DNA of 64,000 bases, from positions 67,151 through 131,150 of the forward strand of contig JBGSJG010000001.1 in NCBI GenBank assembly GCA_041742135.1, written 5' to 3'. Both the position numbers and the translations under genes were made by a program. The notes under the pieces are model-generated. The model was not told where the DNA came from and did no database searches. It was given only the letters and a program-made list of their open reading frames with translations. Positions 12,527 through 62,414 of the stretch are shown one piece after another (positions within the stretch are counted from its first letter, which is position 1; every line of letters begins with the position of its first letter). This DNA is from Patescibacteria group bacterium. Lineage in GTDB: Bacteria; Patescibacteriota; Microgenomatia; UBA8517.

Positions 12527-12916
12527 CTAGGCTACTAAATTATCCAGGTAATTTTGAAGGATTAAAGTAGCTGAGAATGCGTCTTCCATTCTCCTTCTTT
12601 TTATTCGCTTCATGCCAGCTTCGATCGTCATCGCCTGAACATCCTTGGTTGTCAAGGTTTCGTCGGCGTAGACTACCGGCAAGCCAAGCTCTTTCTCGAG
12701 TAGCTCTCCAAATTCTTTTGAGGCCGCGCCTACTTCTCCATCCGAAAGGCCGATAACAATTTTTGAAATGTTATCTGTCAACACGATTCTTCCTATTTCG
12801 CGGGCCAAATCAATCGTCTTTTTGTACCTTATTACCCGAAGCGGAGCAGCCAGAGGACCAGCGGCATAGGCCAAGCCGACTTTACTTAATCCAAAATCAA
12901 TTCCTAGAGTATTCAT
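12527..12916 (-). CDS. ruvX: Putative pre-16S rRNA nuclease / Holliday-junction resolvase-like protein YqgF (RuvX)
   Basis: Translation MNTLGIDFGLSKVGLAYA…IVIGLSDGE…ILQNYLD matches the RuvX/YqgF fold signatures. Confidence 0.8.
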   Translation of the reverse strand: MNTLGIDFGLSKVGLAYAAGPLAAPLRVIRYKKTIDLAREIGRIVLTDNISKIVIGLSDGEVGAASKEFGELLEKELGLPVVYADETLTTKDVQAMTIEAGMKRIKRRRMEDAFSATLILQNYLDNLVA

Positions 12917-13568
12917 TACTGCTTAGTCTACCAGTGGGGTCAAGTCTTGCCCGTACTATGAGTCTTTTAGGGCGCAGCGGATGCCCGGGAGGAGTACAGG
13001 TGATAAGGGTAACATAAGAATCATCGAGGTTCTGAGCTAAGATCTCCAGATCTGTAGGTTTTACCTCAAAGACATCTTCAACCACAAATACGTAGGAAAT
13101 GCCATCGTAGCGGATTTCCAACTGGTCAGATTCTTTAATAGTAGGAAGGGTGGAAAAAATTGACATATAATCTTTGGGGTTAAAAAACTGCGGCAAAATC
13201 GAGTGGCCAAAGATAACAGCATTGCCGCGCTTACCTGGAAGAGCGGTTCCCGGATATTGGATTAGGGATTCACTTAAATCCTCCCCACCAATGGCTACAG
13301 TCGCGTCTTTGATGCCAAGTTTGGGAATAGTCAAATTGTAATAGCGAATTTTTGAGATATCAAAATCTTCAGAGTTTGTCGGAAACCACTGACTTGCCTT
13401 CGTATAGTCAATTTCCACTTCATCCTCTGGAACTGGTGAGAGGTACTCCCGAAATTGCGTTCCGTTGTCCAAAGAATATGTACTTATCGGCAAAACCACA
13501 TAGCCCAAAACCACAAGCCCCAATATAGCGCTAGTAAAACCAATAACTTTGCTGAAGCGTTTTTTCAT
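12897..13568 (-). CDS. Sortase family transpeptidase
   Basis: It has an N-terminal TM anchor, a His in …AVIFGHSI…, the TLxTC motif (TLITCTP) and a downstream Arg (…LIVRAR…). Confidence 0.8.
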   Translation of the reverse strand: MKKRFSKVIGFTSAILGLVVLGYVVLPISTYSLDNGTQFREYLSPVPEDEVEIDYTKASQWFPTNSEDFDISKIRYYNLTIPKLGIKDATVAIGGEDLSESLIQYPGTALPGKRGNAVIFGHSILPQFFNPKDYMSIFSTLPTIKESDQLEIRYDGISYVFVVEDVFEVKPTDLEILAQNLDDSYVTLITCTPPGHPLRPKRLIVRARLDPTGRLSSNEYSRN

Positions 13569-44319: not shown

Positions 44320-46005
44320 CTAAACCCCAGTCTGAGTAATTGCCTCTTCCTCTTTTCTGGGTATCCCAAAACCTTTTTTCTTGACCAGTGCAATAAAGTC
44401 ATTTAGCTCCGCAGAGCGAAGGAGAAAACTTACTAGTAAATACGTAAGGCCTCCGATGACTGCCGTCACGCCAGTTAAAAACATAAGATTAAATGTATAG
44501 CGAGTGTCTATCACAAAATGCTCAAAGTTTAGCCCTTGAATATTGCCCACAAAAGACAGCTCCTTTACCCACACTGAGCGGTCAAAAAATCTAATTATCA
44601 CAAACATCACACTTCCTGAAACAAACGAAGCTATGAAAGATTTGATTATGGGAACAATCGCAAAGAGAGTTCCACCGTTTAGCTCACGACTTAAGATGTA
44701 ATACATAGTGACTGCTTGGAAAATAATTCCGATGGTATATGCCGCCGCCAGTGACCAAGTGGGAAGATTCAGAAAAACGATAAAAATTACGCTCAGAATA
44801 GTACTTATAACAACACCCACTATGGACATTTTGACTGGTGTTGTGGTGTTGTGGCGTGCATAAAAAGCTCGAGACAAAAGAGCGGCAGCTGATTGAAAAG
44901 GAATACTCACGGCAAAAACCGATAAAACCAAACCCGTCTGAACAGTCGCTTCCCAGTCAAAGCGATCAGTTCCAAACAAAAGTCTCACAATGGGAATTCG
45001 AAGAACGATAAGAGTCGCTGCGACGGGAGTGACCAAAAAACTGATCTGATACAGGGTTTTTAGAAATGCTTTTTTAAACGCGTGGCGATCTTCGTCGATA
45101 TTTGAAAGCGTCGGTAAAGCCGCCTTGGCCAGAGAAACTCCAAACAGCGTTACCGGCATAATTCGGACTGCATCAGCCAAACTGTAATAAGTAAGGGCTG
45201 CAGAAGCAATCAAAGACGTAAAAAACAAGTCAGTAACACGGGTGATTTGTAAAAACCCAAGCTCGAGAACTCTCGGAGCTGCAAGTCGTGCGATTTTTTT
45301 AACTTCATCGGTCAGCTTTAGCGACCACATGAACCTAAAGCCAAGCCTCCGGGCTGTTGGAAACTGGACAGCAAAGTGTAAAAACGCCCCAAACACAGCG
45401 CCCAAGGCCGGCGCCATAAGGCCCAGATCATCCGCAAAGATTATCGTAAACACAATAATCCCGACGTTGTAGAAAATTGGCGCCATTGCTGAGACAAAAA
45501 AGTGCCTCAAAGATTCCAAGATGCCAGTTAAGACATAACTTACGATGAAAAAGCCCTGAGCAATTAAAAGTACGCGAGCCAAAGAAGCAATTGTCTGATG
45601 CTCGGCATCTGTATATCCCGGAGCAAAAATTGAGTATATCGGAGCGGCAAAGACGGCAAAAACGCAAGCAAAAACAATAAATCCCACAAGTGCAAGGTTT
45701 ATTATCCGCGCAGCCGTCTCGAAAGCAATATGCTTATCCTTTGCGTGAACCTTTGTAAAAACAGGAATAAAAGCCGAGGAAAAAATACCAAAAGCCAAAA
45801 GCTGAAACACCAAGTCGGGAAGCCTGAAGGATGCAAAGAAAAGCGAAAGTTCTTCCGGATCAAAAAAGTGCAAAAACAAGCGCTGGCGGACCAAACCCAA
45901 AACAGAGCTAAACATAACCATCGCCATAATCACAAAGGCTGCAGCCAAAATTGAATTTTGGGGACCGTTTAGAAAGTTTTTACCAGAGAGTAACAAGCGC
46001 TTCAT
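44320..46005 (-). CDS. murJ: Lipid II flippase MurJ (MviN)
   Basis: It is polytopic, about 14 TM helices over 561 aa, with the MurJ-like N-terminus …LGLVRQRLFLHFFDPEELSLFFASFRLPDLVFQLLAFGIFSSAFIPVF…. Confidence 0.8.
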   Translation of the reverse strand: MKRLLLSGKNFLNGPQNSILAAAFVIMAMVMFSSVLGLVRQRLFLHFFDPEELSLFFASFRLPDLVFQLLAFGIFSSAFIPVFTKVHAKDKHIAFETAARIINLALVGFIVFACVFAVFAAPIYSIFAPGYTDAEHQTIASLARVLLIAQGFFIVSYVLTGILESLRHFFVSAMAPIFYNVGIIVFTIIFADDLGLMAPALGAVFGAFLHFAVQFPTARRLGFRFMWSLKLTDEVKKIARLAAPRVLELGFLQITRVTDLFFTSLIASAALTYYSLADAVRIMPVTLFGVSLAKAALPTLSNIDEDRHAFKKAFLKTLYQISFLVTPVAATLIVLRIPIVRLLFGTDRFDWEATVQTGLVLSVFAVSIPFQSAAALLSRAFYARHNTTTPVKMSIVGVVISTILSVIFIVFLNLPTWSLAAAYTIGIIFQAVTMYYILSRELNGGTLFAIVPIIKSFIASFVSGSVMFVIIRFFDRSVWVKELSFVGNIQGLNFEHFVIDTRYTFNLMFLTGVTAVIGGLTYLLVSFLLRSAELNDFIALVKKKGFGIPRKEEEAITQTGV

Positions 46006-46320: not shown

Positions 46321-46869
46321 ATGGCGCGTGCGAAAGCCAGTATTAATTTGTTGCCTAGAGAAGATTTCGAAAGAACTATTCTTGGCCGCATCATGAAGTG
46401 GGCCTTAACCTCATTTCGTTTCATTGTAATTGCCGTCGAGTTTGTGGTGATTGCAGGTTTTATGCTCCGTTTTTGGCTCGATGTTCAAATCAGCGACTTG
46501 GACGATGAGATTAACCAAAAAGCCGCCCTTGTGTCTTCACGTTCAAGTTTTGAACAAGAATTCCGAAGCACCCAAGACAAACTTGCCGTACACAAACAAT
46601 TGACCGACAAAGCAAACCAACCAAGCGTTTACTTTGAAGAGGTGTCTCGCAATCTTCCTAGTGACACACAGCTTATTTCTTTTGCAAAAAGTGCTGATTC
46701 GCTGGAGATTATTGGTGCAACTTTAAACGAAGCTTCGATCACGGGATTTGTCAAAAATCTTGAGACCAATCCTCGTTTTACTTCCGTAAACTTGTCCTCA
46801 ATATCTACTCGCGACGACAGCCCTTTAGTTGAGTTTGTACTAAAAATATCGACAATAAATACAATTTAA
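46321..46869 (+). CDS. pilN: Type IV pilus assembly protein PilN
   Basis: It has the N-terminal INLLP motif followed by a TM helix (…KASINLLPREDFERT…FIVIAVEFVVIAGF…). Confidence 0.65.
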   Translation: MARAKASINLLPREDFERTILGRIMKWALTSFRFIVIAVEFVVIAGFMLRFWLDVQISDLDDEINQKAALVSSRSSFEQEFRSTQDKLAVHKQLTDKANQPSVYFEEVSRNLPSDTQLISFAKSADSLEIIGATLNEASITGFVKNLETNPRFTSVNLSSISTRDDSPLVEFVLKISTINTI

Positions 46870-46870
46870 T

Positions 46871-47551
46871 ATGGCAAATCGTTGGCAAGAAAATTATCAG
46901 CTTTATAAAAGATATCTGCGAAGCTTGGCTGCAATGTACCAAAAGCGCCAAGATGTACATCTGTTTGTCGAACTTTTACTTTCACTGTCGGTGATTGCCA
47001 TTTTTGGAGCATTTGCAATCAAGCCTACTTTAGTAACAATTTCCGACCTAAACAACCAAATTGCAGGAAAGAAAGAAACGGTTGCCCAGCTTGACGCCAA
47101 GATCCAAGCTCTCTCGGAAGCCCAAAACGTGTACCAGGAAAATTTGAGCGCAATTTTGCTTCTTAATAGTTCAGTCCCTCAAAATCCTGAGCCAGAAAAA
47201 TTTATTAGACAGGTCGAAGGCTTGGCCAAGCGCAATTCCGTATTAATTTCCAGTCTTGATACCTCAAATTTGAAATTAACCTCGCATGAAATACTCACAG
47301 AAGAAGTGGACCAGTCACCCAGCGCCGAGGGTGCAGCTGTCGATTATTTTCCTGCCGCCGCCGCAAGTTTTGAGCTTGAAACAAATTTCAACGGCGTTTA
47401 CGATCAATTAATCGCCTTTTTGCGTGAATTCGAAAATCTTCGAAGGCCGATGTATATCGACACTATAACTTTTCGTTCTTCCTCTGAAGAGCTAAGCCGC
47501 GAAATTGCTTTATCTATCATGGGCAGGCTGTCTTATCTACCAAATGAGTAA
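46871..47551 (+). CDS. PilO-like type IV pilus assembly protein
   Basis: It has a short cytoplasmic N-terminus, a TM helix, a coiled coil (…QIAGKKETVAQLDAKIQALSEAQ…) and a C-terminal domain. It is translationally coupled to pilN with a 1-nt gap. Confidence 0.5.
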   Translation: MANRWQENYQLYKRYLRSLAAMYQKRQDVHLFVELLLSLSVIAIFGAFAIKPTLVTISDLNNQIAGKKETVAQLDAKIQALSEAQNVYQENLSAILLLNSSVPQNPEPEKFIRQVEGLAKRNSVLISSLDTSNLKLTSHEILTEEVDQSPSAEGAAVDYFPAAAASFELETNFNGVYDQLIAFLREFENLRRPMYIDTITFRSSSEELSREIALSIMGRLSYLPNE

Positions 47552-47918
47552 AAGAGAAAAAACACCACCAGTTGTAATTTTTGCAATTTTGTCAGTGATT
47601 ACTGTTTTTGTTTGGGTAGGTTTTGAAACCTACAGAGCATTCACCAAAGACCCAACACCAACTGTGCCTTTAGAAGTAACCCGCGCTTTAGACCCAACTC
47701 TTGATGAAGAGCAACTGGCAGATGTGGTCAGACGGATCAATCTGACAGAAGACGAAATCGGAGACACCACACTAGTGCAACCAGAAACTCCAGAACCAAC
47801 TGAAACGCCAGCACTAACCCAGACAGAAGAACCAGTTGAAACAACTGAGACCGCACTTGAATCAGGTGGTGATGAACAAGCTATACTGGAAGAACTAGAT
47901 CAACTATTGGAAGAATAA
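47544..47918 (+). CDS. Small N-anchored protein with an acidic Thr/Glu-rich C-terminus
   Basis: The start is taken at the internal ATG (MSKREK). The TM helix is VVIFAILSVITVFVWVGF. The tail is …TETPALTQTEEPVETTETALESGGDEQ…. Confidence 0.45.
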   Translation: MSKREKTPPVVIFAILSVITVFVWVGFETYRAFTKDPTPTVPLEVTRALDPTLDEEQLADVVRRINLTEDEIGDTTLVQPETPEPTETPALTQTEEPVETTETALESGGDEQAILEELDQLLEE

Positions 47919-47919
47919 C

Positions 47920-49344
47920 ATGCAAAACAAATTGAAAATTCCGTCACTTCTTGGGGTGTTTGTCTTAGTTCTTGGACTTGCCGTGGGAGTTGCCCTCATA
48001 GGCCAAAGACAGATATTTCGCCTTGGAGCATCCGCAGACTCAGCTCCACAGGATGTCAGGATTTCCAATGTTACCGACTCTTCTTTTACGGTTTCTTGGT
48101 ACAGTACTAAACCAACTGTTGGATATATCAGTTGGGGTAGCACAACAGCTTTAGGGCAAAGCTCTGAGGTGTCTGGCCTTGATACTAAAACCGTTCACTC
48201 TGTCACTGTAGACGAACTTTCGGCGAGTACAAATTACTACTTTGTAATCAACTCCGGCGGTGTTGAGTTTGATAATAATGGCATAGCCTGGTCGGTTGCC
48301 ACAGGGCCTACTTTGTCTGTAAACGCGACAGCGCTTTTGGCATCAGGAACAATTCGTGCAGCAGACGGCTCCCCGGCAAGCGACGTGTTGGTCTATATAA
48401 ACGGGGGCGGATTAGCTCAAGTTTCTGGCGTAACCTCACAAAATGGTACCTGGACAATACCGCTGTCATCTGCCCGAAGCAGAACACTTTCTGCGTATGC
48501 AAACTTAACAGCCAACGACATCCTTGACGTGTACGTACAAGCAGGAGGTTTAGGAGTAGCTACCGCGCAAGTTCTGGTCTCTCAAACAAATCCTACTCCC
48601 GAAATAGTTTTAGGGCAGTCGTACGATTTTAGAAATGACCAGACAATAGACTCAGGAGGCTTACCAGAAGCAGATTTATCTTTGCCTGAAAACGAAGAAG
48701 AATTGGGGCCCGGTGGGCTTGATCTTTCAAGCCAAGAGACCGGGTCTTCATCGGAACGTCCTGTAACTATCGAAAGCATTGATGAGGCAGAAGAAATTGT
48801 TTATACCGACACACCAGAGTTTTTTGGCGAAGGCCCCGCTGGGTCTGTCATCACGATTACTGTTGAGTCGGATCCTGTTACTGATGAGGTGAGGGTCACT
48901 AACGGAGGTGAGTGGAGTTGGAGCCCACCCACTTCACTTCCAGATGGCGAACACACTATAACCATAAGCTGGATTGATGCTTCTGGATTTTTAAGAAAAA
49001 TTACTCGTTCGTTTGTTGTTGCAGCAGCAGAGGATGAACCCGGGTTTGAATCCACTCCGTCTGGGGCTACGTCTACCCCCAAGCCAACAGCGTCACCGAC
49101 GCCCACGCCCACAGCTACACCAAAAGCAACTAAGTCACCCACGCCCTCCCCAACACCGACTGCAACGATTAAGCCAACTGTAACCCCGAGCGCCACTCCC
49201 GCCCCGACACGCATAAGCATTCCTTCAACAGAATCTGGAGTGCCAGAAGCAGGTGTCGCAACCCCCACTCTTCTTTTGGCATTTGTTGGACTAGCTCTAT
49301 TTATCTCTGGTATATTTATTAGTAGAAAATCATTTAACTCATGA
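47920..49344 (+). CDS. Cell-surface protein with an N-terminal signal or anchor, an FN3-like domain, a Pro/Thr-rich stalk, a C-terminal VPEAG motif, a hydrophobic helix and an RK tail (sortase-substrate-like)
   Basis: The FN3-like domain is …VRISNVTDSSFTVSWYS…. The stalk is …PTPTPTATPKATKSPTPSPTPTATIKPTVTPSATPAPT…. The C-terminus is …SGVPEAGVATPTLLLAFVGLALFISGIFISRKSFNS. Confidence 0.6.
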   Translation: MQNKLKIPSLLGVFVLVLGLAVGVALIGQRQIFRLGASADSAPQDVRISNVTDSSFTVSWYSTKPTVGYISWGSTTALGQSSEVSGLDTKTVHSVTVDELSASTNYYFVINSGGVEFDNNGIAWSVATGPTLSVNATALLASGTIRAADGSPASDVLVYINGGGLAQVSGVTSQNGTWTIPLSSARSRTLSAYANLTANDILDVYVQAGGLGVATAQVLVSQTNPTPEIVLGQSYDFRNDQTIDSGGLPEADLSLPENEEELGPGGLDLSSQETGSSSERPVTIESIDEAEEIVYTDTPEFFGEGPAGSVITITVESDPVTDEVRVTNGGEWSWSPPTSLPDGEHTITISWIDASGFLRKITRSFVVAAAEDEPGFESTPSGATSTPKPTASPTPTPTATPKATKSPTPSPTPTATIKPTVTPSATPAPTRISIPSTESGVPEAGVATPTLLLAFVGLALFISGIFISRKSFNS

Positions 49345-50171
49345 ACCCACCTGCTCAAAATTTTGATCCGCCTGTAGCTTTCCCTCAAGTTGAGTCTTTT
49401 CCAAATCCTGACATGGGGACACTGCCACCAGCCCCTACAGCCGTAACTCCAACAGATGTACCTCCAACCATCATTACTTCAACAGCTGATTCAGGGTCTC
49501 CCAAAAAGAAATTTCCTAAACAGATCGCAGCAGTACTGGGCATAGTTGTGTTGCTACTTGGTGTTGTTGCTGGAGTCGTCTTAGTCCGCAGTCAACAATT
49601 AAATAATGCTTCTGCTTGGGAGTGCTCACTGTATACTTTTGGTTTGGGCCAAGACGGCTCAGTCACGGTTCAAAATGGTTCAAGTACCAATCAACCTCAG
49701 CAAGAAGCTCAAGTCTATATAAACGACATATTAATCGAGAGATTCACAGTTCCCGCTCTTAACGCTGGAGCAGGAACAACACTGGGAAGCGTTAGTGTAC
49801 CGCAAGACGAGCCTTATACTTGGAAAATTCAAGGAACACTTGATTGCCAAAACGTTGGAAGCGTAGGTGGAAACTCTGACTCGGCAATTTGTTTAAATGT
49901 TGTGGCCTACGACACACAGTGGAACGTATTAAGCGCATCTGAGCTTTCAGAACTTAACGAAGGTGATACAGTGAGATTTGCAGTTTCCGGCACTGCTACA
50001 ACGGGAACCATCGACAGTGCTAGGTTTAGAATTAATAGCGGCACCCCAGTTGAAACAACAGAAAAAAAGCCGGGTAGCGAAGAGTTTTTTGTGGAGTACG
50101 AAATTCCTGCAAGCACCCAAAGCTTTAGCATTAGTGCCCAGTTGCATCACAATACGGCTGGTTGGTTTTAA
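49341..50171 (+). CDS. N-anchored bitopic protein with a Pro-rich cytoplasmic tail and a C-terminal GWF domain
   Basis: Translation MNPPAQNFDPPVAFPQ…KKKFPKQIAAVLGIVVLLLGVVAGVVLV… The C-terminal ~95 aa (…VVAYDTQWNVLSASELSEL…LHHNTAGWF) are paralogous to the C-terminus of 51127..52299. Confidence 0.6.
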   Translation: MNPPAQNFDPPVAFPQVESFPNPDMGTLPPAPTAVTPTDVPPTIITSTADSGSPKKKFPKQIAAVLGIVVLLLGVVAGVVLVRSQQLNNASAWECSLYTFGLGQDGSVTVQNGSSTNQPQQEAQVYINDILIERFTVPALNAGAGTTLGSVSVPQDEPYTWKIQGTLDCQNVGSVGGNSDSAICLNVVAYDTQWNVLSASELSELNEGDTVRFAVSGTATTGTIDSARFRINSGTPVETTEKKPGSEEFFVEYEIPASTQSFSISAQLHHNTAGWF

Positions 50172-50176
50172 GACAT

Positions 50177-51124
50177 ATGAACAATACTTTTTTACATAAA
50201 AATTTAACAACCATAATAGTCGTTGCTGCCACTGTCCTTCTAGGTGGGGTTGCGGTATTTACCGGGCTTAGGCTTTTTCAGCTTAGAAACGAGCCAGTAG
50301 CTCCAAATGCTCCCCAAAGCGAGCCTCAAGCGGCAAACGAAGGCGTCATTTTGACCATTCCTTTGGAAACTGTAAAAAGAGGCCCCGGACAGCATCTCTT
50401 GGCAACTCAAGATGTATCCCAGTATAGCGGCCTTGTTTGCGAAGTGACTGCAACTGCCCAAAACCAAGGAAGCGTACACCCAGACAACGACTTGGTAGTA
50501 GCATCGGGGGGCGGTAGCGTTGTTGTTCCGGATGTAGAAAGAGAGGCAGGCGGTGTCTTTTCAGCAAGTGGAACTCTGACTTTGGGAAGCACTGTTACCG
50601 TAACTCTTGAAATGGGTCCCGATGAGGTTTTTTCAGCAGGAATTGACGTCTCACTTGATTGTATAGTCCCCACACCAACCCCGACACCGCAAATTGTTAC
50701 GCAGTCCTGTACTGATTTAGCTTTTGCGCTTTCTACTCCAACCTCCACGGCTGCAGCGACGCCTACTGCAACCCCAACGAGCACGCCTACAGCTACACCA
50801 ACTGCCACATCAACTCCAAACATGACACCTGAGTATCCTTGCAACAGTAAATGTACACTGGATAGCCAGTGTCAAAAGACAGACTCAAACTATGTTTGCC
50901 ATGACGAAGCAGGGCAAACAACTTGCAGGCACCGCGCATACACAAGCCAAGAAAACTGTCAGCCGCCAACAAGTACACCAACAAGTACCGCAACCACAAC
51001 TGCACGCGCCACTGCAACAGCAACACCCGCTGCCTTGCCACAAGCAGGAGTTGGAACTCCAACAATTGTGGGTATTGGTGCAGGCATATTGTTACTACTG
51101 GGTGCTTTAGCTCTCGCTCTCTAA
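50177..51124 (+). CDS. Surface protein with an N-terminal anchor or signal, a Cys-rich module, a Thr/Pro/Ala-rich stalk and a C-terminal LPQAG motif plus hydrophobic helix
   Basis: The ATG is at 50177; the ORF track starts at a TTG at 50162. The N-terminus is …GGVAVFTGLRLFQLRNEPVAPNAPQSEPQ…. The Cys-rich module is …TPNMTPEYPCNSKCTLDSQCQKTDSNYVCHDEAGQTTCRHR…. The C-terminus is …AALPQAGVGTPTIVGIGAGILLLLGALALAL. Confidence 0.6.
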   Translation: MNNTFLHKNLTTIIVVAATVLLGGVAVFTGLRLFQLRNEPVAPNAPQSEPQAANEGVILTIPLETVKRGPGQHLLATQDVSQYSGLVCEVTATAQNQGSVHPDNDLVVASGGGSVVVPDVEREAGGVFSASGTLTLGSTVTVTLEMGPDEVFSAGIDVSLDCIVPTPTPTPQIVTQSCTDLAFALSTPTSTAAATPTATPTSTPTATPTATSTPNMTPEYPCNSKCTLDSQCQKTDSNYVCHDEAGQTTCRHRAYTSQENCQPPTSTPTSTATTTARATATATPAALPQAGVGTPTIVGIGAGILLLLGALALAL

Positions 51125-51126
51125 AT

Positions 51127-52299
51127 ATGTTCGATCAAGGACCGCAAGCTTCTCAAACACAAACTATCACTACGGCTCCTCAGGGTGGGAATAAAAAAAG
51201 GTGGATTATACCCGTTATTGTTCTTGCAATAACGCTGCTTGGAGTGGGAGCTGGGGTGTTTCTGACGCAACAAGGAAAAGACATTGTCCCAAGTGGCGCC
51301 ACAGGTATATGCCAACACGACGAGTGTAGCCCCAATGACGCCCCCACCTGTCAAACAAATGGTGCTGGCAATACTGGCTATCAGTGCACATGCACAGCTA
51401 TACTTCAGCCGGATCTGAGGGATTGTATCTACGGAGTTTATGTGTGGAGCTGTGGAAATTACAATCCGAGTGCTTGCCAACCAGCCTCTGCCACAAACCC
51501 ACCCGGGCAGGAATGTTCTCCTGGGCAAGTGGACACGGGCAGCTGTGGAGGCTCTTGTGCCAGTAACCAAAGACCCATAAAGGTTTGCCAAAGCAATGGC
51601 ACATGGGGCCTGACGCAATGTACCAGCGATTCAAGTTGTACTACTCAAGCCACCAATCCGCCAGGGGCTACTAATCCTCCAGCTGGAGGATGTACTGGTG
51701 GAGGAAACACACCGATGACTTGTACTGGCCCTGGAACTTTTGAAGTTCAAACCTGTAATTGTCCCAACAATTCTGGTACTAGCTACCCCGGATGTATTTG
51801 TAATGACAACTGCAGTACCCAAAACGTAACCCTAGCTTCCGGGCAATCTCAAACATTTAATGTTTCGGCCCCCGTTTGTGGAGCCGCACAAGTTGACGTT
51901 AATAACTACGGAGGAGCATGTGCGGGATCCGGCGCAGTATGTACCGCACCACCAGATGCCACAACAAGCTCTTCAGCGTCACCGACAGCTACACCTACAG
52001 ACCAAATTTCAGCCCGCTGTATAAACATAATGGCATACGACACAAACTGGAGCGCTCTTTCGGCTGAGGAACTTTCTGAAATTGGCCCCGGCGACACCAT
52101 CAGATTTGTGGTTGCTGGCAACACATCAAGTGGATCGTTTACCAAGGCAAGGTTTACTATAAATGGAGTCCTTCGCCAAGAGGTGTCTCAAAAGCGGCCA
52201 GGGACAGAAGAGTTTTATGATGAATACACAATTCCGGCAGACGCAACCGGACTTACCGTTGATGCTCAAATTTATCACACTGTTTTGGGTTGGTTTTAA
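51127..52299 (+). CDS. Cys-rich surface protein with an N-terminal anchor and a C-terminal GWF domain
   Basis: The start is taken at the ATG at 51127 (MFDQGPQ…), directly after the stop of the upstream gene. It has more than 30 Cys in repeated CxxC/CxC contexts. The C-terminus …MAYDTNWSALSAEELSEI…IYHTVLGWF is paralogous to 49341..50171. Confidence 0.55.
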   Translation: MFDQGPQASQTQTITTAPQGGNKKRWIIPVIVLAITLLGVGAGVFLTQQGKDIVPSGATGICQHDECSPNDAPTCQTNGAGNTGYQCTCTAILQPDLRDCIYGVYVWSCGNYNPSACQPASATNPPGQECSPGQVDTGSCGGSCASNQRPIKVCQSNGTWGLTQCTSDSSCTTQATNPPGATNPPAGGCTGGGNTPMTCTGPGTFEVQTCNCPNNSGTSYPGCICNDNCSTQNVTLASGQSQTFNVSAPVCGAAQVDVNNYGGACAGSGAVCTAPPDATTSSSASPTATPTDQISARCINIMAYDTNWSALSAEELSEIGPGDTIRFVVAGNTSSGSFTKARFTINGVLRQEVSQKRPGTEEFYDEYTIPADATGLTVDAQIYHTVLGWF

Positions 52300-52304
52300 T
52301 TAAT

Positions 52305-53534
52305 ATGAATCTTAAAAAAGACTGGATAAAAATCGTTTTGATATTAGCCACCATCGTCTTGGGTGGAGTCGCTATGTTCATTGCTCTCAGGCTTTACAAC
52401 CAAAGAGATCAAGCAGTTGCACCCAATGCTCCACAAAGTAATCCAGCAGCCCAGGAAACAGGTGCGTGCCAAACTTGGACTTTAACTTTCGCCTCCCCCA
52501 CGAGTTCCGCCACGTCTAGCTCAACAGCATCTTCCACAGCCAGTTCAACTCCTACCCCGTCCCCGATTGATTGTGTAGAGGGAGAATTTACCGAGACCTT
52601 TGCCAGCTCAAACCTGAATCAATACAACACAGGAGGATCAGGCTCAGCGAGTGTCAGTTCGGGGCAGCTCAACATGACTGTGCAGGTACGCGACGACAAC
52701 ACGGGGAGCTGGGATCCAAGATACTATATCGAGGCAGAAAGACCTATAAGTGGAGCTTTTGACACATCACTTATCGTCAAGAGTCTTTCCGGGCCTAATG
52801 ACTATCAAGGATCGGTACGACTCAACATAGACGATACCGGAGAAACAGGTGCCGCTCCTACGCAAGCTGTAGTCATTGCTGTCGAGAAGGGCCAAGGCAC
52901 TGCACGAGACGTTGAATTTCATACAAACACGAGTTACGCAGCTGGTAATTTTGTACGCAGAAGCATTCCTGCCACAGGCGATGTCACTTTGAAAATCGAA
53001 AGAACCACAAGCGGAGCGGTAATTGGCTATTATGATGTTGGGGCAGGATTTGTAAAACTAGGCGAATATACGGGCATTACCAAACCAATGTACGTACGCC
53101 CCGCTCTCAGATCAGACGACGTTCACAATCGAAACACCCAAGCAACCGCTCAGGTTACAGGCAGCATCGACAACTGGCTTGTAAGCTGTATAACACCCAC
53201 AACAACCGCAACGAGCACTGCGACCTCTACTGCTACTTCTACTTCAACCTCAACATCTACACCAAACATGACGCCTGAATATCCTTGCAATAGTGCTTGC
53301 ACAAGCAACAGCCAATGCCAAAAAACTGATTCCAAATATATCTGCTATAGCCAGACGGGCAGTTGCCGACACTCGGACTACCCAGCGCAATCCAATTGTC
53401 TGCCCCCTGGAGTTACAGGAACACCAAACCCAACACTGCCTCCTGTTCCCCAGTCTGGCGTGAACTTGCCAACTGTTCTTGGAATTGGGCTTGGAGCTCT
53501 TCTAATCCTTGGGGCTTTGGGACTGCTGCTTTAA
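52305..53534 (+). CDS. Surface protein paralogous to 50177..51124, with an N-terminal anchor, a Ser/Thr-rich linker, a beta-rich domain, a Cys-rich module and a C-terminal VPQSG motif plus hydrophobic helix
   Basis: The N-terminus is …GGVAMFIALRLYNQRDQAVAPNAPQSNPAAQ…. The Cys-rich module is …TPNMTPEYPCNSACTSNSQCQKTDSKYICYS…. The C-terminus is …LPPVPQSGVNLPTVLGIGLGALLILGALGLLL. The ATG is at 52305; the ORF track starts at a TTG at 52290. Confidence 0.6.
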   Translation: MNLKKDWIKIVLILATIVLGGVAMFIALRLYNQRDQAVAPNAPQSNPAAQETGACQTWTLTFASPTSSATSSSTASSTASSTPTPSPIDCVEGEFTETFASSNLNQYNTGGSGSASVSSGQLNMTVQVRDDNTGSWDPRYYIEAERPISGAFDTSLIVKSLSGPNDYQGSVRLNIDDTGETGAAPTQAVVIAVEKGQGTARDVEFHTNTSYAAGNFVRRSIPATGDVTLKIERTTSGAVIGYYDVGAGFVKLGEYTGITKPMYVRPALRSDDVHNRNTQATAQVTGSIDNWLVSCITPTTTATSTATSTATSTSTSTSTPNMTPEYPCNSACTSNSQCQKTDSKYICYSQTGSCRHSDYPAQSNCLPPGVTGTPNPTLPPVPQSGVNLPTVLGIGLGALLILGALGLLL

Positions 53535-53535
53535 G

Positions 53536-55971
53536 TTATCTCCACGAGGAAATCCAATAATAACTTTTATCCCACCACTCGGGAACAAAAATCGCGCTCC
53601 AGTGTGGATAAAAATAAACAAATGCCAAAAATATTACCAGCGATGGAAGAAGAAGCCACTTTATTCTTTTTAAGAGACTCGCCAAAATGATTGCCATGAA
53701 GGGCACGGAAGGCAAATAGTGATACAAAAACATAATTCTGGGGCTAATCGCCCAAGGGGTAAAAAGAACCAAGTAGGAAAACACCAAGACTAAATAAACC
53801 ACCAATCGTTTTTTAATGGCCACAAATAGCGAAAGCACGACCGACAGCCCTCCTAGCCAGAAGAAAAATGGATTGCCGTGTGCATAGATGTTAGCGACAA
53901 TTCCATCTTTGTAATTTTGATAAAGGTACACGGGGCGCAGTGTCAAAGGCCAGCTCCACCAGGCTGATGTATAAGGGTGAGTGGCGTTTAGGCCCGAGTG
54001 ATACCACCACATTTGTTTTTGCATTCCCCAAAACGTTTCAAGGTTATGCCCAAAGGTGAACATCGGCAAGTAACTTGCCAAGTAAATCACCGGAGGAATA
54101 AGCAAATACCAAAGCAAACTGAGCTTGATTTTGGGTCTTAGTAAAACAAACGACAGCGCAAAGACAGGCAACATCCACATCGTGCTCCACTTAGTTGCAG
54201 CCGCGAAACCTAAAAATATTGCGCTTATCAAATCGCGCTTTGCCAAAAAGTAATAATAAGAAATCAAGGCAAAAGCGACAAAATAAACATCCGCAGTGCC
54301 AATGCGCGACATGGTTAAAACAAGCCCATCAAGAGCGATAAACAAAGCGGCAAAAATAGCAATGTCGCGGCTAGCAAATAATTTTTTGGCAATTTTATAA
54401 ACCATCAAAACTATTGCGACTCCCAATAGTGCCCCTGGAAGCCTCCACGCAAACGAATGTACACCCAGAACGCCCATACTTGCCGCCATAATTTCTTTCG
54501 CCAACGGCGGATGTGTCCACTCGTATGCAAAGCCCTCGGGGTGAGCACTACTCCAGTGCCAAGGCTTTGGGTCTCCCACAAGCATCTGGCGCGCCGTAAA
54601 CGCATGATAAATCTCATCAAAATAATCCTGTGGGGGAAAATCCAGGCGGACCAAGCGAATAACTAGTGAAAAAAGCAAAATTCCAAAGAGCAATCGCTTT
54701 TCCCATTTAGAGTTTATTCTGTCATCTATTTCTTCTCTCTTAAGACTTTTAAAAAAATTTCTAATGCTTGCAAGTAAAAACTTTGAAGAGGGAACTAGAG
54801 TTTGGCGAATCAGATAAACAAACAAAACAAGATTGATCGCGATTACGATTTTAACAATTATGTCGGGCAGAACTTCTGCAAAATCGTCGGTTATCCACTT
54901 GTAGGAATAAAACATATTCAAAACATAAGTTATCGAAAGCCCGATATAAACGATCCATAAATTCGGCGTTATTGCCGCGGCGATGGCAAGCGGAGCCAAA
55001 GCCGGAAGCATGTGCCTCTCGTGCATACTGGTGAAAAACAAAAAATTAGTTAAAAGAAGGATTGCCAAAGCGTGATAGGGTTTAGCGGTGGTAAGTTTAT
55101 TTTTGAAAACCGCAATTAAACTCACAAAACCCAAGGCTAGAACTCCAAAATTCTTAGCGCTTACAATTCCAGGCAAATCCTTCTGCCAAAAGCCACTTAG
55201 GCCCCAAAAGTTAAATGCGTTGACGCTCGTGTAAGGGTATTGCCCGAGTGTTGCCTCAAATCGGCTGTAAATGAAAGACAAGAGATTAGTAGAACCCGAA
55301 AAAGGATAAAACAACAAAATGATTGTTAGTGCAAAAACGCTTCCGAAGCCAACCATACGGGTAAACTTCCACTTCTTGTAAATCATAAGAGCCACAAGTA
55401 CCGGCAACATCATTAAAGCTTGGGGTTTCACCAGCACTCCCCAACCCAAAATTGCCGCCGAGAGTGGCCACACATTAAATGACAAAATTGCCAGTAGCGT
55501 ACTTAGGCTTGTCAACACATCAACTTGTCCCCAAAAAGTAGAATTGGCCAACACAGCCGGGTTAAGTAAGTATGCGGCTGAAGCCAAAATTGCAGTTTTC
55601 GGACGTGATTTTAAAACGTGATAAATAACGTAACCAACCCCAAGGTCAGCCAGTATCGCGGGCAGCTTAAACAAGACTACAGTATCCAGAAGGTTCGTTT
55701 CTTGGATTCTGGCCAATAATGCCAACACATAAATATATCCGGGGAGGTAATCACTCCAAGCCGCGTAAAACTGGCCAAAGCCAAGACTTGCCGCACGCTC
55801 GGCCCACGCAATAAACGTATTTTGATCAAGACTCAGGGTTCCGAAAGAGGCCAAGCTAAAACGTACTACAAAGCTTCCTAAAAGTAGAAGTACAATGGGG
55901 GACATGAGAAAGTTTTTGATCATTCTTTTTTTATCAACACTTTTTATATATTTCATAAGCTCTCCGGGCAC
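53536..55971 (-). CDS. Large polytopic GT-C-type glycosyltransferase-like membrane protein (PMT/ArnT-like), possibly two tandem modules
   Basis: It is 811 aa with more than 20 predicted TM helices. The second half has a DE-containing first-loop motif (…RLDFPPQDYFDEIYHAFTARQM…) typical of GT39/GT83 families. The first half has a similar topology (…LDQNTFIAWAERAASLGFGQFY…). Confidence 0.6.
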   Translation of the reverse strand: MPGELMKYIKSVDKKRMIKNFLMSPIVLLLLGSFVVRFSLASFGTLSLDQNTFIAWAERAASLGFGQFYAAWSDYLPGYIYVLALLARIQETNLLDTVVLFKLPAILADLGVGYVIYHVLKSRPKTAILASAAYLLNPAVLANSTFWGQVDVLTSLSTLLAILSFNVWPLSAAILGWGVLVKPQALMMLPVLVALMIYKKWKFTRMVGFGSVFALTIILLFYPFSGSTNLLSFIYSRFEATLGQYPYTSVNAFNFWGLSGFWQKDLPGIVSAKNFGVLALGFVSLIAVFKNKLTTAKPYHALAILLLTNFLFFTSMHERHMLPALAPLAIAAAITPNLWIVYIGLSITYVLNMFYSYKWITDDFAEVLPDIIVKIVIAINLVLFVYLIRQTLVPSSKFLLASIRNFFKSLKREEIDDRINSKWEKRLLFGILLFSLVIRLVRLDFPPQDYFDEIYHAFTARQMLVGDPKPWHWSSAHPEGFAYEWTHPPLAKEIMAASMGVLGVHSFAWRLPGALLGVAIVLMVYKIAKKLFASRDIAIFAALFIALDGLVLTMSRIGTADVYFVAFALISYYYFLAKRDLISAIFLGFAAATKWSTMWMLPVFALSFVLLRPKIKLSLLWYLLIPPVIYLASYLPMFTFGHNLETFWGMQKQMWWYHSGLNATHPYTSAWWSWPLTLRPVYLYQNYKDGIVANIYAHGNPFFFWLGGLSVVLSLFVAIKKRLVVYLVLVFSYLVLFTPWAISPRIMFLYHYLPSVPFMAIILASLLKRIKWLLLPSLVIFLAFVYFYPHWSAIFVPEWWDKSYYWISSWR

Positions 55972-58134: not shown

Positions 58135-58602
58135 ATGACTAAAGTGGACAATCAGAATCCTCAAAATAACCCTCCTCAGGGCGAAACGCCCAAGCCCACT
58201 GGCCCTAAAATTTTAATAGTCGAAGACGACACAACTCTTTCAAAGATGTATGCAATGAAGTTTCAAAGTGAAGGCTTTGAAGTACTAATCGCCAACGACG
58301 GGGCTCGCGGATTGGCACTTGCCGCAGAGGCCAACCCTGCTCTTATACTTCTGGACATGATGCTTCCAAAATACTCGGGCATTGAATTTTTAGAGCAACT
58401 GCAACAGCATTCTCAGCCCATAAAGATTCCGATTATTGCTTTGTCTAATTTAACTGAAAAGCAAGAAGCGGATCGTGCGCTTCAGCTTGGAGTCAAAGAA
58501 TATTTAGCTAAAGCAATGAATACTCCGGAGGATGTGGTGAAAAAAGTAAAGCAGTATCTAGGTATGGCTCAGTCTCCTACTACCCCTTCTACCCAAGCGT
58601 GA
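58135..58602 (+). CDS. Stand-alone response-regulator receiver (REC, CheY-like) domain protein
   Basis: Motifs …KILIVEDDTTLSKMY…ALILLDMMLPKYSG…YLAKAM… cover the acidic pocket, the phospho-acceptor Asp and the conserved Lys. Length is 155 aa with no output domain. Confidence 0.75.
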   Translation: MTKVDNQNPQNNPPQGETPKPTGPKILIVEDDTTLSKMYAMKFQSEGFEVLIANDGARGLALAAEANPALILLDMMLPKYSGIEFLEQLQQHSQPIKIPIIALSNLTEKQEADRALQLGVKEYLAKAMNTPEDVVKKVKQYLGMAQSPTTPSTQA

Positions 58603-59633
58603 ACTTCTTCCCAGTTGCCACTTCTGGGGACAAATACATAAAGGCCTTTGTAATCCGTTGAGTAAGGAGGATTAAAAAGAAGTTCTTCAGGAATTACTTG
58701 GGAAACCATGTTTCCACGCGCATCAACCAACATACGAACCACCTGTGAAAGCTCTTGGTCAGACAAATCAGTTTCCGTAATCTCTTTAAATGTTTTCCAA
58801 AGAGTAAGTAGCTTTGTTGGCGAGAGCAAAACTTGAGGCGTCACAACAGTGTCTTTGATAGCTACGATTATTTTTTGCTGTCGGGCCGCACGAGCCAAGT
58901 CGTTGCCTTCAGTCGGATCCGTAGAATGCCGAGACCTGGCAAACTTTAAAGCGGTTTGCCCGTCCATTAGCTGTACTCCCGCATCAAAAGCCACAGTTTC
59001 GTATCGACACAAAAATTCAGGATCTCCCCCGCAATCGTCGTCCTCGCGGCCGACAATTGGAAAGCGCGCATCAACAAATGCTCGCTCTACATTAACTTTC
59101 ACCCCTCCCAAAACGTCAACCACTTTTACAAAGCCTTCAAAATTAATTCCTAACGCGTAGTGAATTGGAAGTCCGGTAACTTCTTCGACTACAGATTTTG
59201 CTAAAATTATTCCCCCGCCTGACGCCTTTTTGTTTCCAATTAAATATGCGCCATTTATCTTGTCGTCCAAATTAACGACCCAAATGTCGCGCGGAATAGA
59301 TATTAAAGAAACTTTGCCGTCTTGTCGGTTTATCGAAGCTACGATCATCGTGTCCGTAACAAACGGATTTTTTTCTCCATCCCCTGCAATTCCCAAAAGA
59401 AGAATATTGGTTTTGTTGTCTGTTTGTTCCACCAAACCAGCTTGTGGCAATAAAAATACCCGAGCCATGGATAAATAGTTCCCAAGTGCTGTTGGAGCCA
59501 AAATGCTTTTAAGTAAAACAAACATGCCCCATAGAACCAATATCACACTAGCAAGTAGTGTTAAACGCACAAACCATAAGTGGCGCGACAAGAGTCGTCT
59601 TTTTATTTTCCCCAAGGTACCTCGTAGCTTCAT
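58569..59633 (-). CDS. LytR-CpsA-Psr (LCP) family cell-envelope phosphotransferase
   Basis: It has an N-terminal TM helix followed by the LCP core (…NILLLGIAGDGEKNPFVTDTMIVASINRQDGKVSLISIPRDIWV…). Confidence 0.8.
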   Translation of the reverse strand: MKLRGTLGKIKRRLLSRHLWFVRLTLLASVILVLWGMFVLLKSILAPTALGNYLSMARVFLLPQAGLVEQTDNKTNILLLGIAGDGEKNPFVTDTMIVASINRQDGKVSLISIPRDIWVVNLDDKINGAYLIGNKKASGGGIILAKSVVEEVTGLPIHYALGINFEGFVKVVDVLGGVKVNVERAFVDARFPIVGREDDDCGGDPEFLCRYETVAFDAGVQLMDGQTALKFARSRHSTDPTEGNDLARAARQQKIIVAIKDTVVTPQVLLSPTKLLTLWKTFKEITETDLSDQELSQVVRMLVDARGNMVSQVIPEELLFNPPYSTDYKGLYVFVPRSGNWEEVHAWVEGVVGD

Positions 59634-61496: not shown

Positions 61497-62414
61497 ATGA
61501 CTACTCATCCACTCCAAAGCCAACCTTGGGCAGACTTCAGACGAGCTTGGGGTAATGAAGTTGTTAAAACTGATTTTGGGTATCTCACACTCCACCTCAT
61601 TCCCCTTCTGAATAAAAAAATTGGCATGTTCATTAAGGGACCAATCCCCACTAAAGCAATGCTTAACGAACTTAAACAAATTGCTCGTGAGCACAATTTA
61701 ATTTTCATAAAACTTGAACCCAATGTTAGAAAATCAGAAAAGCTAGTTTCTTTAATGAACGAAAACGGGGCCGTGCCAGGCAAAACTTTATTTACACCAA
61801 CCACTTTTTGGATTGATTTAACAAAGTCCGAAGAGGAACTACTTAAAAGCTTTCATCAAAAGACTCGTTACAATATTAAGTATGCTCAAAAAAAGGGCGT
61901 GGAAGTAGTGGAGGACAACTCCGATAAAGCTTTCAGCAGCTACATCAAGCTGATGCGCGAAACCGTGCAACGACAGGGCTTTTATGCACATTCTGCTCGC
62001 TACCACAGGCTTATGTGGGAACACCTAAGAAAAACCGATGTTGCCCACTTGTTGATTGCAAAAAAAGGTAAAAAAATTCTTACCTCTTGGATACTTTTTA
62101 AATCCAATGACGCACTTTATTACCCGTATGGTGCAAGTAGCAATAAAAATCAAAACCTTCAGGCCAACTCTCTTATGATGTGGGAAGCCATAAAATTTGG
62201 CAAAAAGCACGGGCTTAAATACTTTGATTTATGGGGGAGAGAAGAAGGTAAGGGATTCACTAAATTTAAAGAGGGCTTTAACCCAGAAGTTGTAGAATTT
62301 TTGGGTACTTGGGATTTGGTTACCTCACCACTATACTGGCCTTATCGTGTTGCAGAAGCTTTAAGATGGCGACTATTGAAACTCAAAGCAAGGTTTTCAA
62401 AACCAACATTTTAG
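61497..62414 (+). CDS. FemAB-family aminoacyl-tRNA-dependent peptidoglycan peptidyltransferase-like protein
   Basis: The length and composition are consistent with a FemABX-like GNAT-type fold (…FWIDLTKSEEELLKSFHQKTRYNIKYAQKKGVEV…YYPYGASS…). The start is 1 nt after the uvrD-like stop. Confidence 0.6.
   Translation: MTTHPLQSQPWADFRRAWGNEVVKTDFGYLTLHLIPLLNKKIGMFIKGPIPTKAMLNELKQIAREHNLIFIKLEPNVRKSEKLVSLMNENGAVPGKTLFTPTTFWIDLTKSEEELLKSFHQKTRYNIKYAQKKGVEVVEDNSDKAFSSYIKLMRETVQRQGFYAHSARYHRLMWEHLRKTDVAHLLIAKKGKKILTSWILFKSNDALYYPYGASSNKNQNLQANSLMMWEAIKFGKKHGLKYFDLWGREEGKGFTKFKEGFNPEVVEFLGTWDLVTSPLYWPYRVAEALRWRLLKLKARFSKPTF

Follow-up and report, generated by a model that had tools for sequence, protein, structure and literature searches.

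Surface proteins encoded by a Woesebacteria-like pilN-pilO operon end in a conserved tail, a candidate sortase signal outside the LPXTG family

Introduction

Which proteins does the sortase of the Patescibacteria act upon, and by what signal would it recognise them? The question is raised by a 64,000-nt stretch of DNA (the window) from an uncultured Woesebacteria-like (Patescibacteria) bacterium, which encodes a sortase and five predicted surface proteins (P1-P5), three of which (P1, P3 and P5) end in a short proline- and glycine-containing motif and a hydrophobic helix. A sortase family occurs in more than half of the genomes of the candidate phyla radiation (CPR) and is near-ubiquitous in the Microgenomates, its substrates being unnamed (Meheust et al. 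2019; PMC6744442). A literature search on Patescibacteria/CPR sortase substrates and sorting signals returned general mentions of sortase or "sortase motifs" only, and no paper naming the substrates or the recognition motif of the near-universal sortase of this group was found.

The tails of P1, P3 and P5 are interpreted here, with moderate confidence, as a variant, specific to this lineage, of the sortase sorting signal, recognised by a Woesebacteria-wide sortase clade. The tail variant is absent from curated libraries and from the literature searched. The locus offers concrete candidate clients for the near-universal sortase, together with a motif, [LIVM]Px[AS]G, a profile of about 240 clusters, and a genomic home in the distal half of a pilN-pilO operon, between genes for MurJ and a protein O-mannosyltransferase. 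If correct, this interpretation would describe a way in which ultra-small, host-dependent bacteria fix variable surface proteins to the wall beside the pilus machinery, and would place beside the six known sortase classes a further natural specificity, for signals with Ala/Ser at the cleavage site and an uncharged end, which could also be of use in sortase-based protein ligation; annotation pipelines could then label proteins that are now called hypothetical.

P1-P5 and their C-terminal signals

The five proteins and their C-terminal elements, all on the + strand, are as follows.

47920..49344, +: P1, 474 amino acids (aa); signal peptide or anchor, fn3, CarboxypepD_reg-like and Big_13 Ig-like domains (Pfam), Thr/Pro stalk, VPEAG, helix, ISRKSFNS
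49240..49341, +: C-terminal signal of P1 (aa 441-474); VPEAG, VATPT, helix, basic tail
49341..50171, +: P2; N-terminal anchor, CARDB-like module, ~95-aa C-terminal domain ending GWF
50177..51124, +: P3; conserved N-terminal anchor, jelly-roll domain, Thr/Pro linkers, six-Cys module, LPQAG tail
51035..51121, +: 29-residue tail of P3, LPQAGVGTPTIVGIGAGILLLLGALALAL-COOH; family profile A1
51127..52299, +: P4; N-terminal anchor, Cys-rich, C-terminal domain paralogous to that of P2, ends GWF
52305..53534, +: P5; P3-type N-terminal anchor and six-Cys module, different passenger domain, VPQSG tail
53445..53531, +: 29-residue tail of P5, VPQSGVNLPTVLGIGLGALLILGALGLLL-COOH; 37.8 bits against the tail profile

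The original prediction of a five-gene cluster at these coordinates is upheld, the five open reading frames (ORFs) lying head to tail on the + strand, and the sequences bear out VPEAG, LPQAG and VPQSG, each with a hydrophobic C-terminal helix, on P1, P3 and P5 respectively, as well as a basic tail on P1 alone among the three (P1 ends ...SGVPEAGVATPTLLLAFVGLALFISGIFISRKSFNS) and Thr/Pro/Ser-rich stalks in all of them. A VPQSG tail is also carried by the P5 orthologue of a second operon locus (L003). P2 and P4 are anchored at the N-terminus only and lack a C-terminal signal. The claim that all five proteins are paralogous did not survive comparison by BLASTP, which recovers two pairs only: P2 with P4, through a 96-aa C-terminal domain (49% identity, E=4e-32), and P3 with P5; P1 has no significant similarity to the other four. 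The N-terminal segment and Cys-rich module that P3 and P5 had been said to share are confirmed at E=2e-14 for the anchor (..GGVAVFTGLRLFQLR..VAPNAPQS.. in P3) and E=5e-21 for the six-Cys module with the tail.

In AlphaFold2 (AF2) models, P1 forms three beta-sandwich domains with a predicted local distance difference test score (pLDDT) >90, its stalk and motif are disordered, and a helix spans residues 448-473; in P3, pLDDT is >90 for aa 57-165, a beta sandwich, and the terminal helix covers residues 295-314. Both models predict the motif to lie in a disordered linker just before the terminal helix. Foldseek matches P1 to tandem Fn3/Ig adhesin stalks, which are generic, and the P3 passenger weakly to jelly rolls (E~1e-3), with no ligand assigned to either. 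Full-length scans of P1-P5 against Pfam and NCBIfam gave generic Ig, fn3 and CARDB matches only, and no anchor model.

A hydrophobic N-terminal helix is found in P1, P3 and P5, that of P1 with an ASA-type site. Cleavage of the P3 and P5 anchors is doubtful by eye, every candidate AxA-like site having a Pro at -3, and the N-terminal anchor of proteins of this type may stay uncleaved. A prepilin-type leader in P3 and P5 was rejected by inspection, there being no G/FTLIE-type site.

Could motif and helix coincide through chance, as an artefact of low complexity in proteins rich in Thr, Pro and Ala? Although the motif is short, with compositionally biased flanks, a hydropathy scan finds xPxxG ahead of a C-terminal helix in P1, P3 and P5 alone among the window ORFs of at least 100 aa. 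Since [LIVM]Px[AS]G occurs at ~1e-4 per residue (about 1/10,000) in ORFs of the lineage, its presence before the helix in three of six ORFs with a C-terminal helix has a chance probability of P~2e-8. Across the window and two other operon loci (L002 and L003), the motif occurs 14 times, nine of them ahead of a C-terminal helix, versus 0 of 34 in the 924 ORFs of 80 other loci. The arrangement of motif and helix exceeds chance and is statistically robust. The window probability, this contrast and the C-terminal placement of the motif refute an accidental origin, its retention across six syntenic loci also speaks against one, and such an origin is given a negligible probability.

The 29-residue tail family

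Homologues of P3 fall into two groups, the first comprising ~34 Patescibacteria-type proteins that share with P3 its two ends alone: an N-terminal segment (..L[AG]GVAVFTAIRLYQLR..VAPNAPxSxPxA..) and the tail, which aligns gap-free. The tail of P3 and P5 can be written LPx[AS]G-x3-PT-glycine-rich helix-LAL-COOH, with no basic end and a constant 29 residues from the Leu to the C-terminus. L1, P2 and G5 are invariant among the 34 homologues, P9/T10 are conserved at 91%, and position 4 is A, S or V, never T.

When 1.84 billion representative proteins were searched with HMMER, using a profile (A1) built from the final 32 residues, 240 clusters were retrieved at E<=1e-3. The xPxxG motif stands exactly 29 residues from the C-terminus in 140 of the 143 cluster members fetched. 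Position 1 in these 140 is L in 132, I in four, V in two and M in two, and at position 4 A (81) and S (50) predominate over V (six), T (two) and P (one); the tails end in LAL (96), LAI (16) or LAF (15), P3 itself having LAL and P5 LLL. No model in Pfam-A or NCBIfam (June 2026) captures the 29-residue tail. Judged by these alignments, the tail is a real, conserved and strictly C-terminal domain.

What lies between the two ends is diverse, including jelly-roll, CARDB-like, vWA and Cys-rich modules, and in some members a linker only. An N-terminal cassette, consisting of a hydrophobic helix, RLYQLR and xxVAPNAPxSxPxA (..AGVAVFTAIRLYQLR..VAPNAP..), accompanies the tail in 75 of 112 full-length members, and sits at 50177-50340 in P3 and 52305-52470 in P5. 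The P3 slot is conserved at both ends only, two of its homologues (P0012 and P0044) aligning to 11-16% of the length of P3; P1 has 120 full-length orthologues at 40-74% identity. A variable passenger between constant ends is the pattern that would be expected for an exposed, fast-evolving surface protein. In one further locus (L087) the tail is found outside the operon, adjoining PGA_cap and Wzy_C genes.

Two tail subtypes can be distinguished: the 29-residue form without a charged end (P3, P5), and that of P1, with a basic end. As the P1 orthologues (n=120) were picked through their passenger domains, their tails form an unbiased sample. Of these orthologues, 89 have [LIVMT]Px[AS]G, with S (44) or A (43) at position 4 and one case each of V and T, and 83 of the 89 have a basic end; further orthologues have a Pro at position 4, and a few bear the 29-residue tail in place of the basic one. 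The most constant element is [AS]G-x-L-T-P-T, with the helix and basic end.

These patterns bear on an alternative in which the C-terminal helices are permanent, uncleaved membrane anchors, xPx[AS]G-x3-PT is a structural, membrane-adjacent element, and P3 and P5 are held at both ends, the glycine-rich helix packing against its own N-terminal anchor or against PilN/PilO. The conserved helix sequence (G13, G15, G17, G23/A24) and the frequent pairing of tail and cassette would suit such an arrangement, as would VAPNAPxSxPxA, which lies ~20 residues beyond the N-terminal helix and whose Pro at -3 makes signal-peptidase cleavage unlikely by inspection. P1 orthologues moreover retain helix and basic tail even where the proline is missing, and no such gene adjoins the sortase in the 80 sortase loci. 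A helix running right up to the carboxylate, without a charge on the cytoplasmic side, would however be a poor stop-transfer anchor. Recognition by an enzyme is indicated by the spacing, which is exactly 29 residues, and by an L-P-x-x-G that is invariant and lies in an exposed, disordered linker, and the same passenger domain is elsewhere attached to genuine LPFTG signals. Permanent anchoring is considered unlikely.

The Cys-rich mini-domain of P3 (aa ~221-272; 50830-50990) and P5 (53270-53420) has six cysteines, spaced C-x3-C-x5-C-x8-C-x8-C-x10-C in P3. Homologues carry one to three copies, always between Thr/Pro linkers and directly before the tail. In the AF2 model, aa 229-232 form a short helix and aa 239-252 a beta-hairpin, with pLDDT 75-86.

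Relation to the classical LPXTG signal

Scanned alone at E<=10, the tails resemble sortase-anchor models only, and weakly, among those of NCBIfam and Pfam. TIGR01167 (cut-off 15.9 bits) gives 16.2 bits for P1, 12.1 for P3 and no match for P5; PF00746 reaches 10 bits on the P3 tail (cut-off 20), and NF033846 (NPXTG anchor) is a weaker match to that of P1. The curated cut-offs for an LPXTG anchor are thus missed overall, the isolated P1 tail alone just reaching TIGR01167. A hydrophobic, membrane-spanning stretch does follow right after the motif, at the C-terminus, according to both the hydropathy scan and the AF2 helices. Because a Thr at position 4, a charged tail and a score above the model cut-offs were all looked for and not found, the 29-residue tail is not to be filed in the classical LPXTG anchor family; most plausibly, it nevertheless works in the manner of that family.

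A connection is provided by the second group of P3 homologues, which have in common a ~110-aa passenger domain and whose C-termini consist of LPFTG or LPSTG, then a helix and a tail of RR type, as in the textbook signal. The jelly-roll domain of P3 is found in six such proteins (P0009, P0011, P0015, P0017, P0024 and P0027) fused to LPFTG, a helix and RR(x)E, its invariant residues including N96, S99, H101, G147, D149 and F152, and MAFFT places LPQAG and LPFTG in the same alignment columns. P0047 likewise combines LPKTG and KKFKLI with a Cys-rich module such as is found elsewhere in the family (e.g. in P0012).

A close known parallel is sortase A (SrtA) of Staphylococcus aureus and its LPXTG clients, in which L, P and G occupy the same places, a hydrophobic C-terminal helix follows, the clients are exported, stalk-bearing proteins, and the sortase is genetically unlinked to them. 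Ala at position 4 has a natural precedent there, in two S. aureus sortase A substrates that carry LPxAG (PMC3436756). In the family described here, by contrast, Ala/Ser at position 4 is the rule and Thr is nearly absent, P3 and P5 lack a charged tail, the helix and the residues after the Gly (x3-PT) are conserved, the length is fixed at 29, position 1 may be L, I, V or M, and the window sortase falls under all class cut-offs. Class E sortases of Actinobacteria, with their LAXTG clients, are similar in being lineage-wide housekeeping enzymes with a systematically altered pentapeptide (PMC8225981), although the alteration is at position 2 (Ala for Pro), with the charged tail kept, rather than at position 4.

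PEP-CTERM/exosortase, PGF-CTERM/archaeosortase and GlyGly-CTERM/rhombosortase systems also use a short motif and helix as a conserved C-terminal domain on many unrelated passengers. Their signals end in a basic cluster and require a polytopic membrane enzyme, whereas neither the enzyme families nor the tail models match here: no PEP-CTERM, GlyGly-CTERM or similar model matched the tails at E<=10, and no exosortase, archaeosortase or rhombosortase (EpsH- or rhomboid-family) enzyme was found among the window proteins scanned, which represent part of the genome only. Processing by such a non-sortase enzyme, an intramembrane or membrane-surface protease/transpeptidase comparable to exosortase, rhombosortase or GPI (glycosylphosphatidylinositol) transamidase, with a convergent likeness to LPXTG, is improbable on this account, and a sortase is present that has no other visible client. 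In its favour can be set the conservation of the whole tail including the helix, the fixed length and the uncharged end, all unlike classical sortase signals, together with the avoidance of Thr at position 4. A small residue, a short spacer and a terminal hydrophobic stretch also recall GPI-attachment signals, and an uncharacterised, conserved multi-pass membrane protein (55895-57034) adjoins the operon. As an exosortase-like enzyme this neighbour is an unlikely candidate: it has no family match and no conserved Cys, and, standing beside a protein O-mannosyltransferase, looks like a glycosyltransferase.

Two further systems resemble particular aspects of the locus. In the SrtA-GspA pathway of Actinomyces oris, a glycosylated, sortase-anchored surface protein is reportedly handled together with a LytR-CpsA-Psr (LCP) enzyme; a housekeeping sortase, Thr/Pro-rich predicted glycoprotein clients and a nearby LCP gene are common to both, whereas the adjacent glycosyltransferase is here a predicted PMT-type O-mannosyltransferase, and the GspA signal is said to be canonical. 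In Gram-positive cocci, YSIRK-type signal peptides pair with LPXTG anchors. There too a conserved N-terminal export segment travels with a C-terminal anchoring signal, but the sequences are unrelated, and the conserved block here lies after the hydrophobic helix.

The sortase and its partner

The candidate processing enzyme, whose gene had also been predicted, and the protein encoded next to it are as follows.

12897..13568, -: sortase, candidate processing enzyme; PF04203, E=7e-23; N-terminal anchor
13565..15718, -: 717-aa bitopic membrane protein; its end overlaps the sortase start codon; no family assignment

The sortase has an intact triad, with His121 in FGHS, Cys190 in TLITC and Arg205 in VRA, and these His, Cys and Arg residues are invariant across 27 members of the clade; domain, triad and TLxTC motif place it in PF04203. 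It scores below the cut-offs of all class A-F models in NCBIfam, with 50 bits for class C (cut-off 160), 39 for E (160), 34 for D (165) and 28 for F (166), and its closest relative in the PDB is distant (E=1e-9). The clade comprises 2546 relatives, several of them named Woesebacteria; the sortase occurs in 415 species genomes, the best 80 of which are all from Woesebacteria, Microgenomates or Patescibacteria.

Around these 80 sortases (L005-L084; 1.44 Mb, 924 ORFs) a fixed block is found, consisting of alaS (AlaRS), the 717-aa protein, srt, ruvX and yceG (YceG/MltG). The 717-aa protein is encoded directly upstream of the sortase in all 80 loci, and may be an obligate sortase partner. A dedicated sortase-substrate cluster was looked for and rejected, no client adjoining the sortase in any of the 80 loci. 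Competing clients are equally absent, 0 of the 924 ORFs having LPxTG, or any xPxxG, with a C-terminal helix. Many records titled "uncultured Gammaproteobacteria bacterium", from metagenome-assembled genomes (L010, L011, L013, L015 and others), carry the Woesebacteria-type sortase block; one so titled (L050/L085) bears the pilN operon too, and such records are evidently mislabelled Patescibacteria.

The sortase and proteins with the candidate sorting signal occur together within the window genome, sortase and operon lying 35 kb apart on one contig. They also share a contig in CAZOUV010000002.1 (L050/L085; ~29 kb apart) and DJCV01000003.1 (L083/L086; ~32 kb apart), and four more pairs of sortase and operon protein are linked through contigs of identical size (81,495; 104,391; 207,676; 70,667).

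The best relatives of the sortase in NCBIfam and the PDB are class C pilus sortases and P1 is a string of Ig/Fn3 domains, which might suggest that P1, P3 and P5 are not monomers anchored in the wall but subunits of a sortase-polymerised fibre, a Gram-positive-type pilus. The class C score is far under its cut-off, no sortase gene lies in or beside the operon in the six loci in which it was compared, and the P3-slot passengers vary greatly and have no relation to known pilins. Neither a class C sortase in the cluster nor pilin-type domains were found, and the Pfam and NCBIfam scans of P1-P5 gave no match to a pilin-motif family, which makes a polymerised fibre highly improbable.

The pilN-pilO operon

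The original prediction treated P1-P5 as a five-gene unit; its coordinates stand, but it missed the conserved pilN-pilO operon whose distal part these genes make up. Eight close-set genes run head to tail at 46321-53534 (+), with P1-P5 preceded by the following three.

46321..46869, +: PilN, type IV pilus alignment protein, first gene of the operon; PF05137, E=1.2e-13
46871..47551, +: PilO-like bitopic protein; weak PilO/GspM matches, PF04350 on the L086 orthologue
47505..47918, +: small bitopic protein with an acidic tail, from the ORF list

Gaps and overlaps between the genes are of at most 5 nt, except where the third gene, as listed from a TTG start, overlaps its predecessor further; its true start is probably an ATG near 47547, ~40 nt downstream. 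PilN carries an INLLP motif at its N-terminus.

Six independent operon loci were compared (the window, L002, L003, L085, L086 and L088). All share the order MurJ (-), PilN, PilO, small acidic protein, P1, a protein of P2 type ending in GWF, either one or two members of the 29-residue tail family, and a protein O-mannosyltransferase (PMT; -), with ribosomal protein S20 sometimes following MurJ. PilN holds the same position in L002, L003, L086 and L088, and the orthologues of the small acidic protein (71-127 aa) do so in the five other loci. A scan of the operon for promoters and terminators gave counts not above shuffled expectation, and no type IV pilus genes other than pilN and pilO were found in the window. 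Co-transcription of P1-P5 with pilus alignment proteins suggests a pilus-linked role at the level of the wall: as the products of the distal part of a pilN-pilO operon, these proteins probably act at the cell wall with the type IV pilus machinery.

The ~95-aa C-terminal domain of P2 (49881-50168) and P4 (52009-52296), with the pattern ..H...GWF, has no family assignment, and is kept in the P2-slot protein of all six loci.

Four genes around the operon encode enzymes of envelope building.

44320..46005, -: MurJ lipid II flippase, divergent from pilN; PF03023, E=8e-69; position conserved
53536..55971, -: PMT/GT39-type protein O-mannosyltransferase, convergent with P5; PF16192, PF13231, PF02366; NF058602, E=3e-17
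58569..59633, -: LCP family protein; PF03816, E=7e-31; kept near the operon
61497..62414, +: FemAB-family peptidyltransferase, peptidoglycan cross-bridge synthesis; PF02388, E=3e-26

PMT adjoins the operon in all six loci, and is a candidate glycosylase of the Thr/Pro/Ser stalks. LCP, UvrD and FemAB genes lie near the operon in the window and some other loci, those for FemAB also in L003, L085 and L086; FemAB-type enzymes make the usual nucleophile for sortase. The neighbourhood formed by MurJ, PMT, LCP and FemAB is envelope-building in character, and counts in favour of a sortase signal.

Proposed mechanism

If the tails are sortase signals, P1, P3 and P5 would be exported by Sec through the N-terminal anchor or signal, and the precursor would be retained in the membrane by its C-terminal helix. 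The flexible Thr/Pro stalk, probably O-mannosylated by the adjacent PMT enzyme, would then offer [LIVM]Px[AS]G to the housekeeping sortase anchored in the membrane (12897-13568), and Cys190 of that enzyme would cut the bond joining Ala/Ser (position 4) to Gly (position 5). Transfer of the protein onto the amine of the lipid II cross-bridge would fix it to the peptidoglycan.

For the original proposal that the three proteins are sortase substrates, the outcome is mixed. It is supported by the conserved C-terminal tail and its resemblance to LPXTG anchors, by the swap of anchors on a common passenger, and by a sortase that is intact and shares contigs with the operon, no canonical LPXTG client having appeared in 1.44 Mb; several observations weigh against it. 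VPEAG, LPQAG and VPQSG do not have the Thr at position 4 of LPXTG, which all six described sortase classes use (PMC8225981), and the positively charged tail that forms part of the classical, tripartite sorting signal (PMC8225981) is present in P1 (..SRKSFNS) and missing from P3 and P5. The conservation of the helix (G13, G15, G17, G23/A24, A28, L29) is atypical for sortase signals and closer to what is seen in substrates of intramembrane sorting enzymes. The motif of P1 is degenerate in a minority of orthologues, ~17 (about 14%) having no Pro at position 2 (LLDAG, ILDSG, VTDSG and others), and one of these proline-less proteins (P0391) is encoded on the same contig as a sortase. In all 80 sortase genomes no candidate substrate lies within 10 kb of the enzyme; because the sortase never adjoins a client, the shared contigs may reflect conserved gene order and not function.

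A more far-reaching interpretation is advanced tentatively and is thought doubtful: Woesebacteria/Microgenomates might possess a sorting system of their own, in which the 29-residue tail, with its glycine-zipper helix, and matched N-terminal anchor frame the variable passengers of the pilN-pilO operon, and the lineage sortase, always with its 717-aa partner, cleaves after Ala/Ser. The acceptor could be something other than ordinary lipid II, such as a lipid, an S-layer component or a pilus part, and the whole would be a bacterial analogue of GPI-type anchoring, tied to type IV pili and host contact.

Other genes of the window

The multi-pass membrane protein encoded at 55895-57034 (+) has ~320-380 aa and a C-terminus of FGYR[YF]xVD..PF.., and adjoins the operon in all loci; it has no Pfam or NCBIfam match, and a five-way alignment contains no conserved Cys. 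L085 and L088 additionally encode a DUF2298 protein. PMT, its multi-pass neighbour and the Thr/Pro/Ser stalks together are a pointer to surface glycoproteins. The envelope-related neighbourhood also holds a long (350-aa) signal peptidase I homologue (22179-23231, -) and a stand-alone response regulator (58135-58602, +).

Elsewhere in the window, a single ORF of 2342 aa (2055-9083, -) encodes fused beta and beta' subunits of RNA polymerase, with Rpb2 domains at aa 69-1074 and Rpb1 domains at aa 1115-2258. RpoB-RpoC fusions are known from few lineages only.

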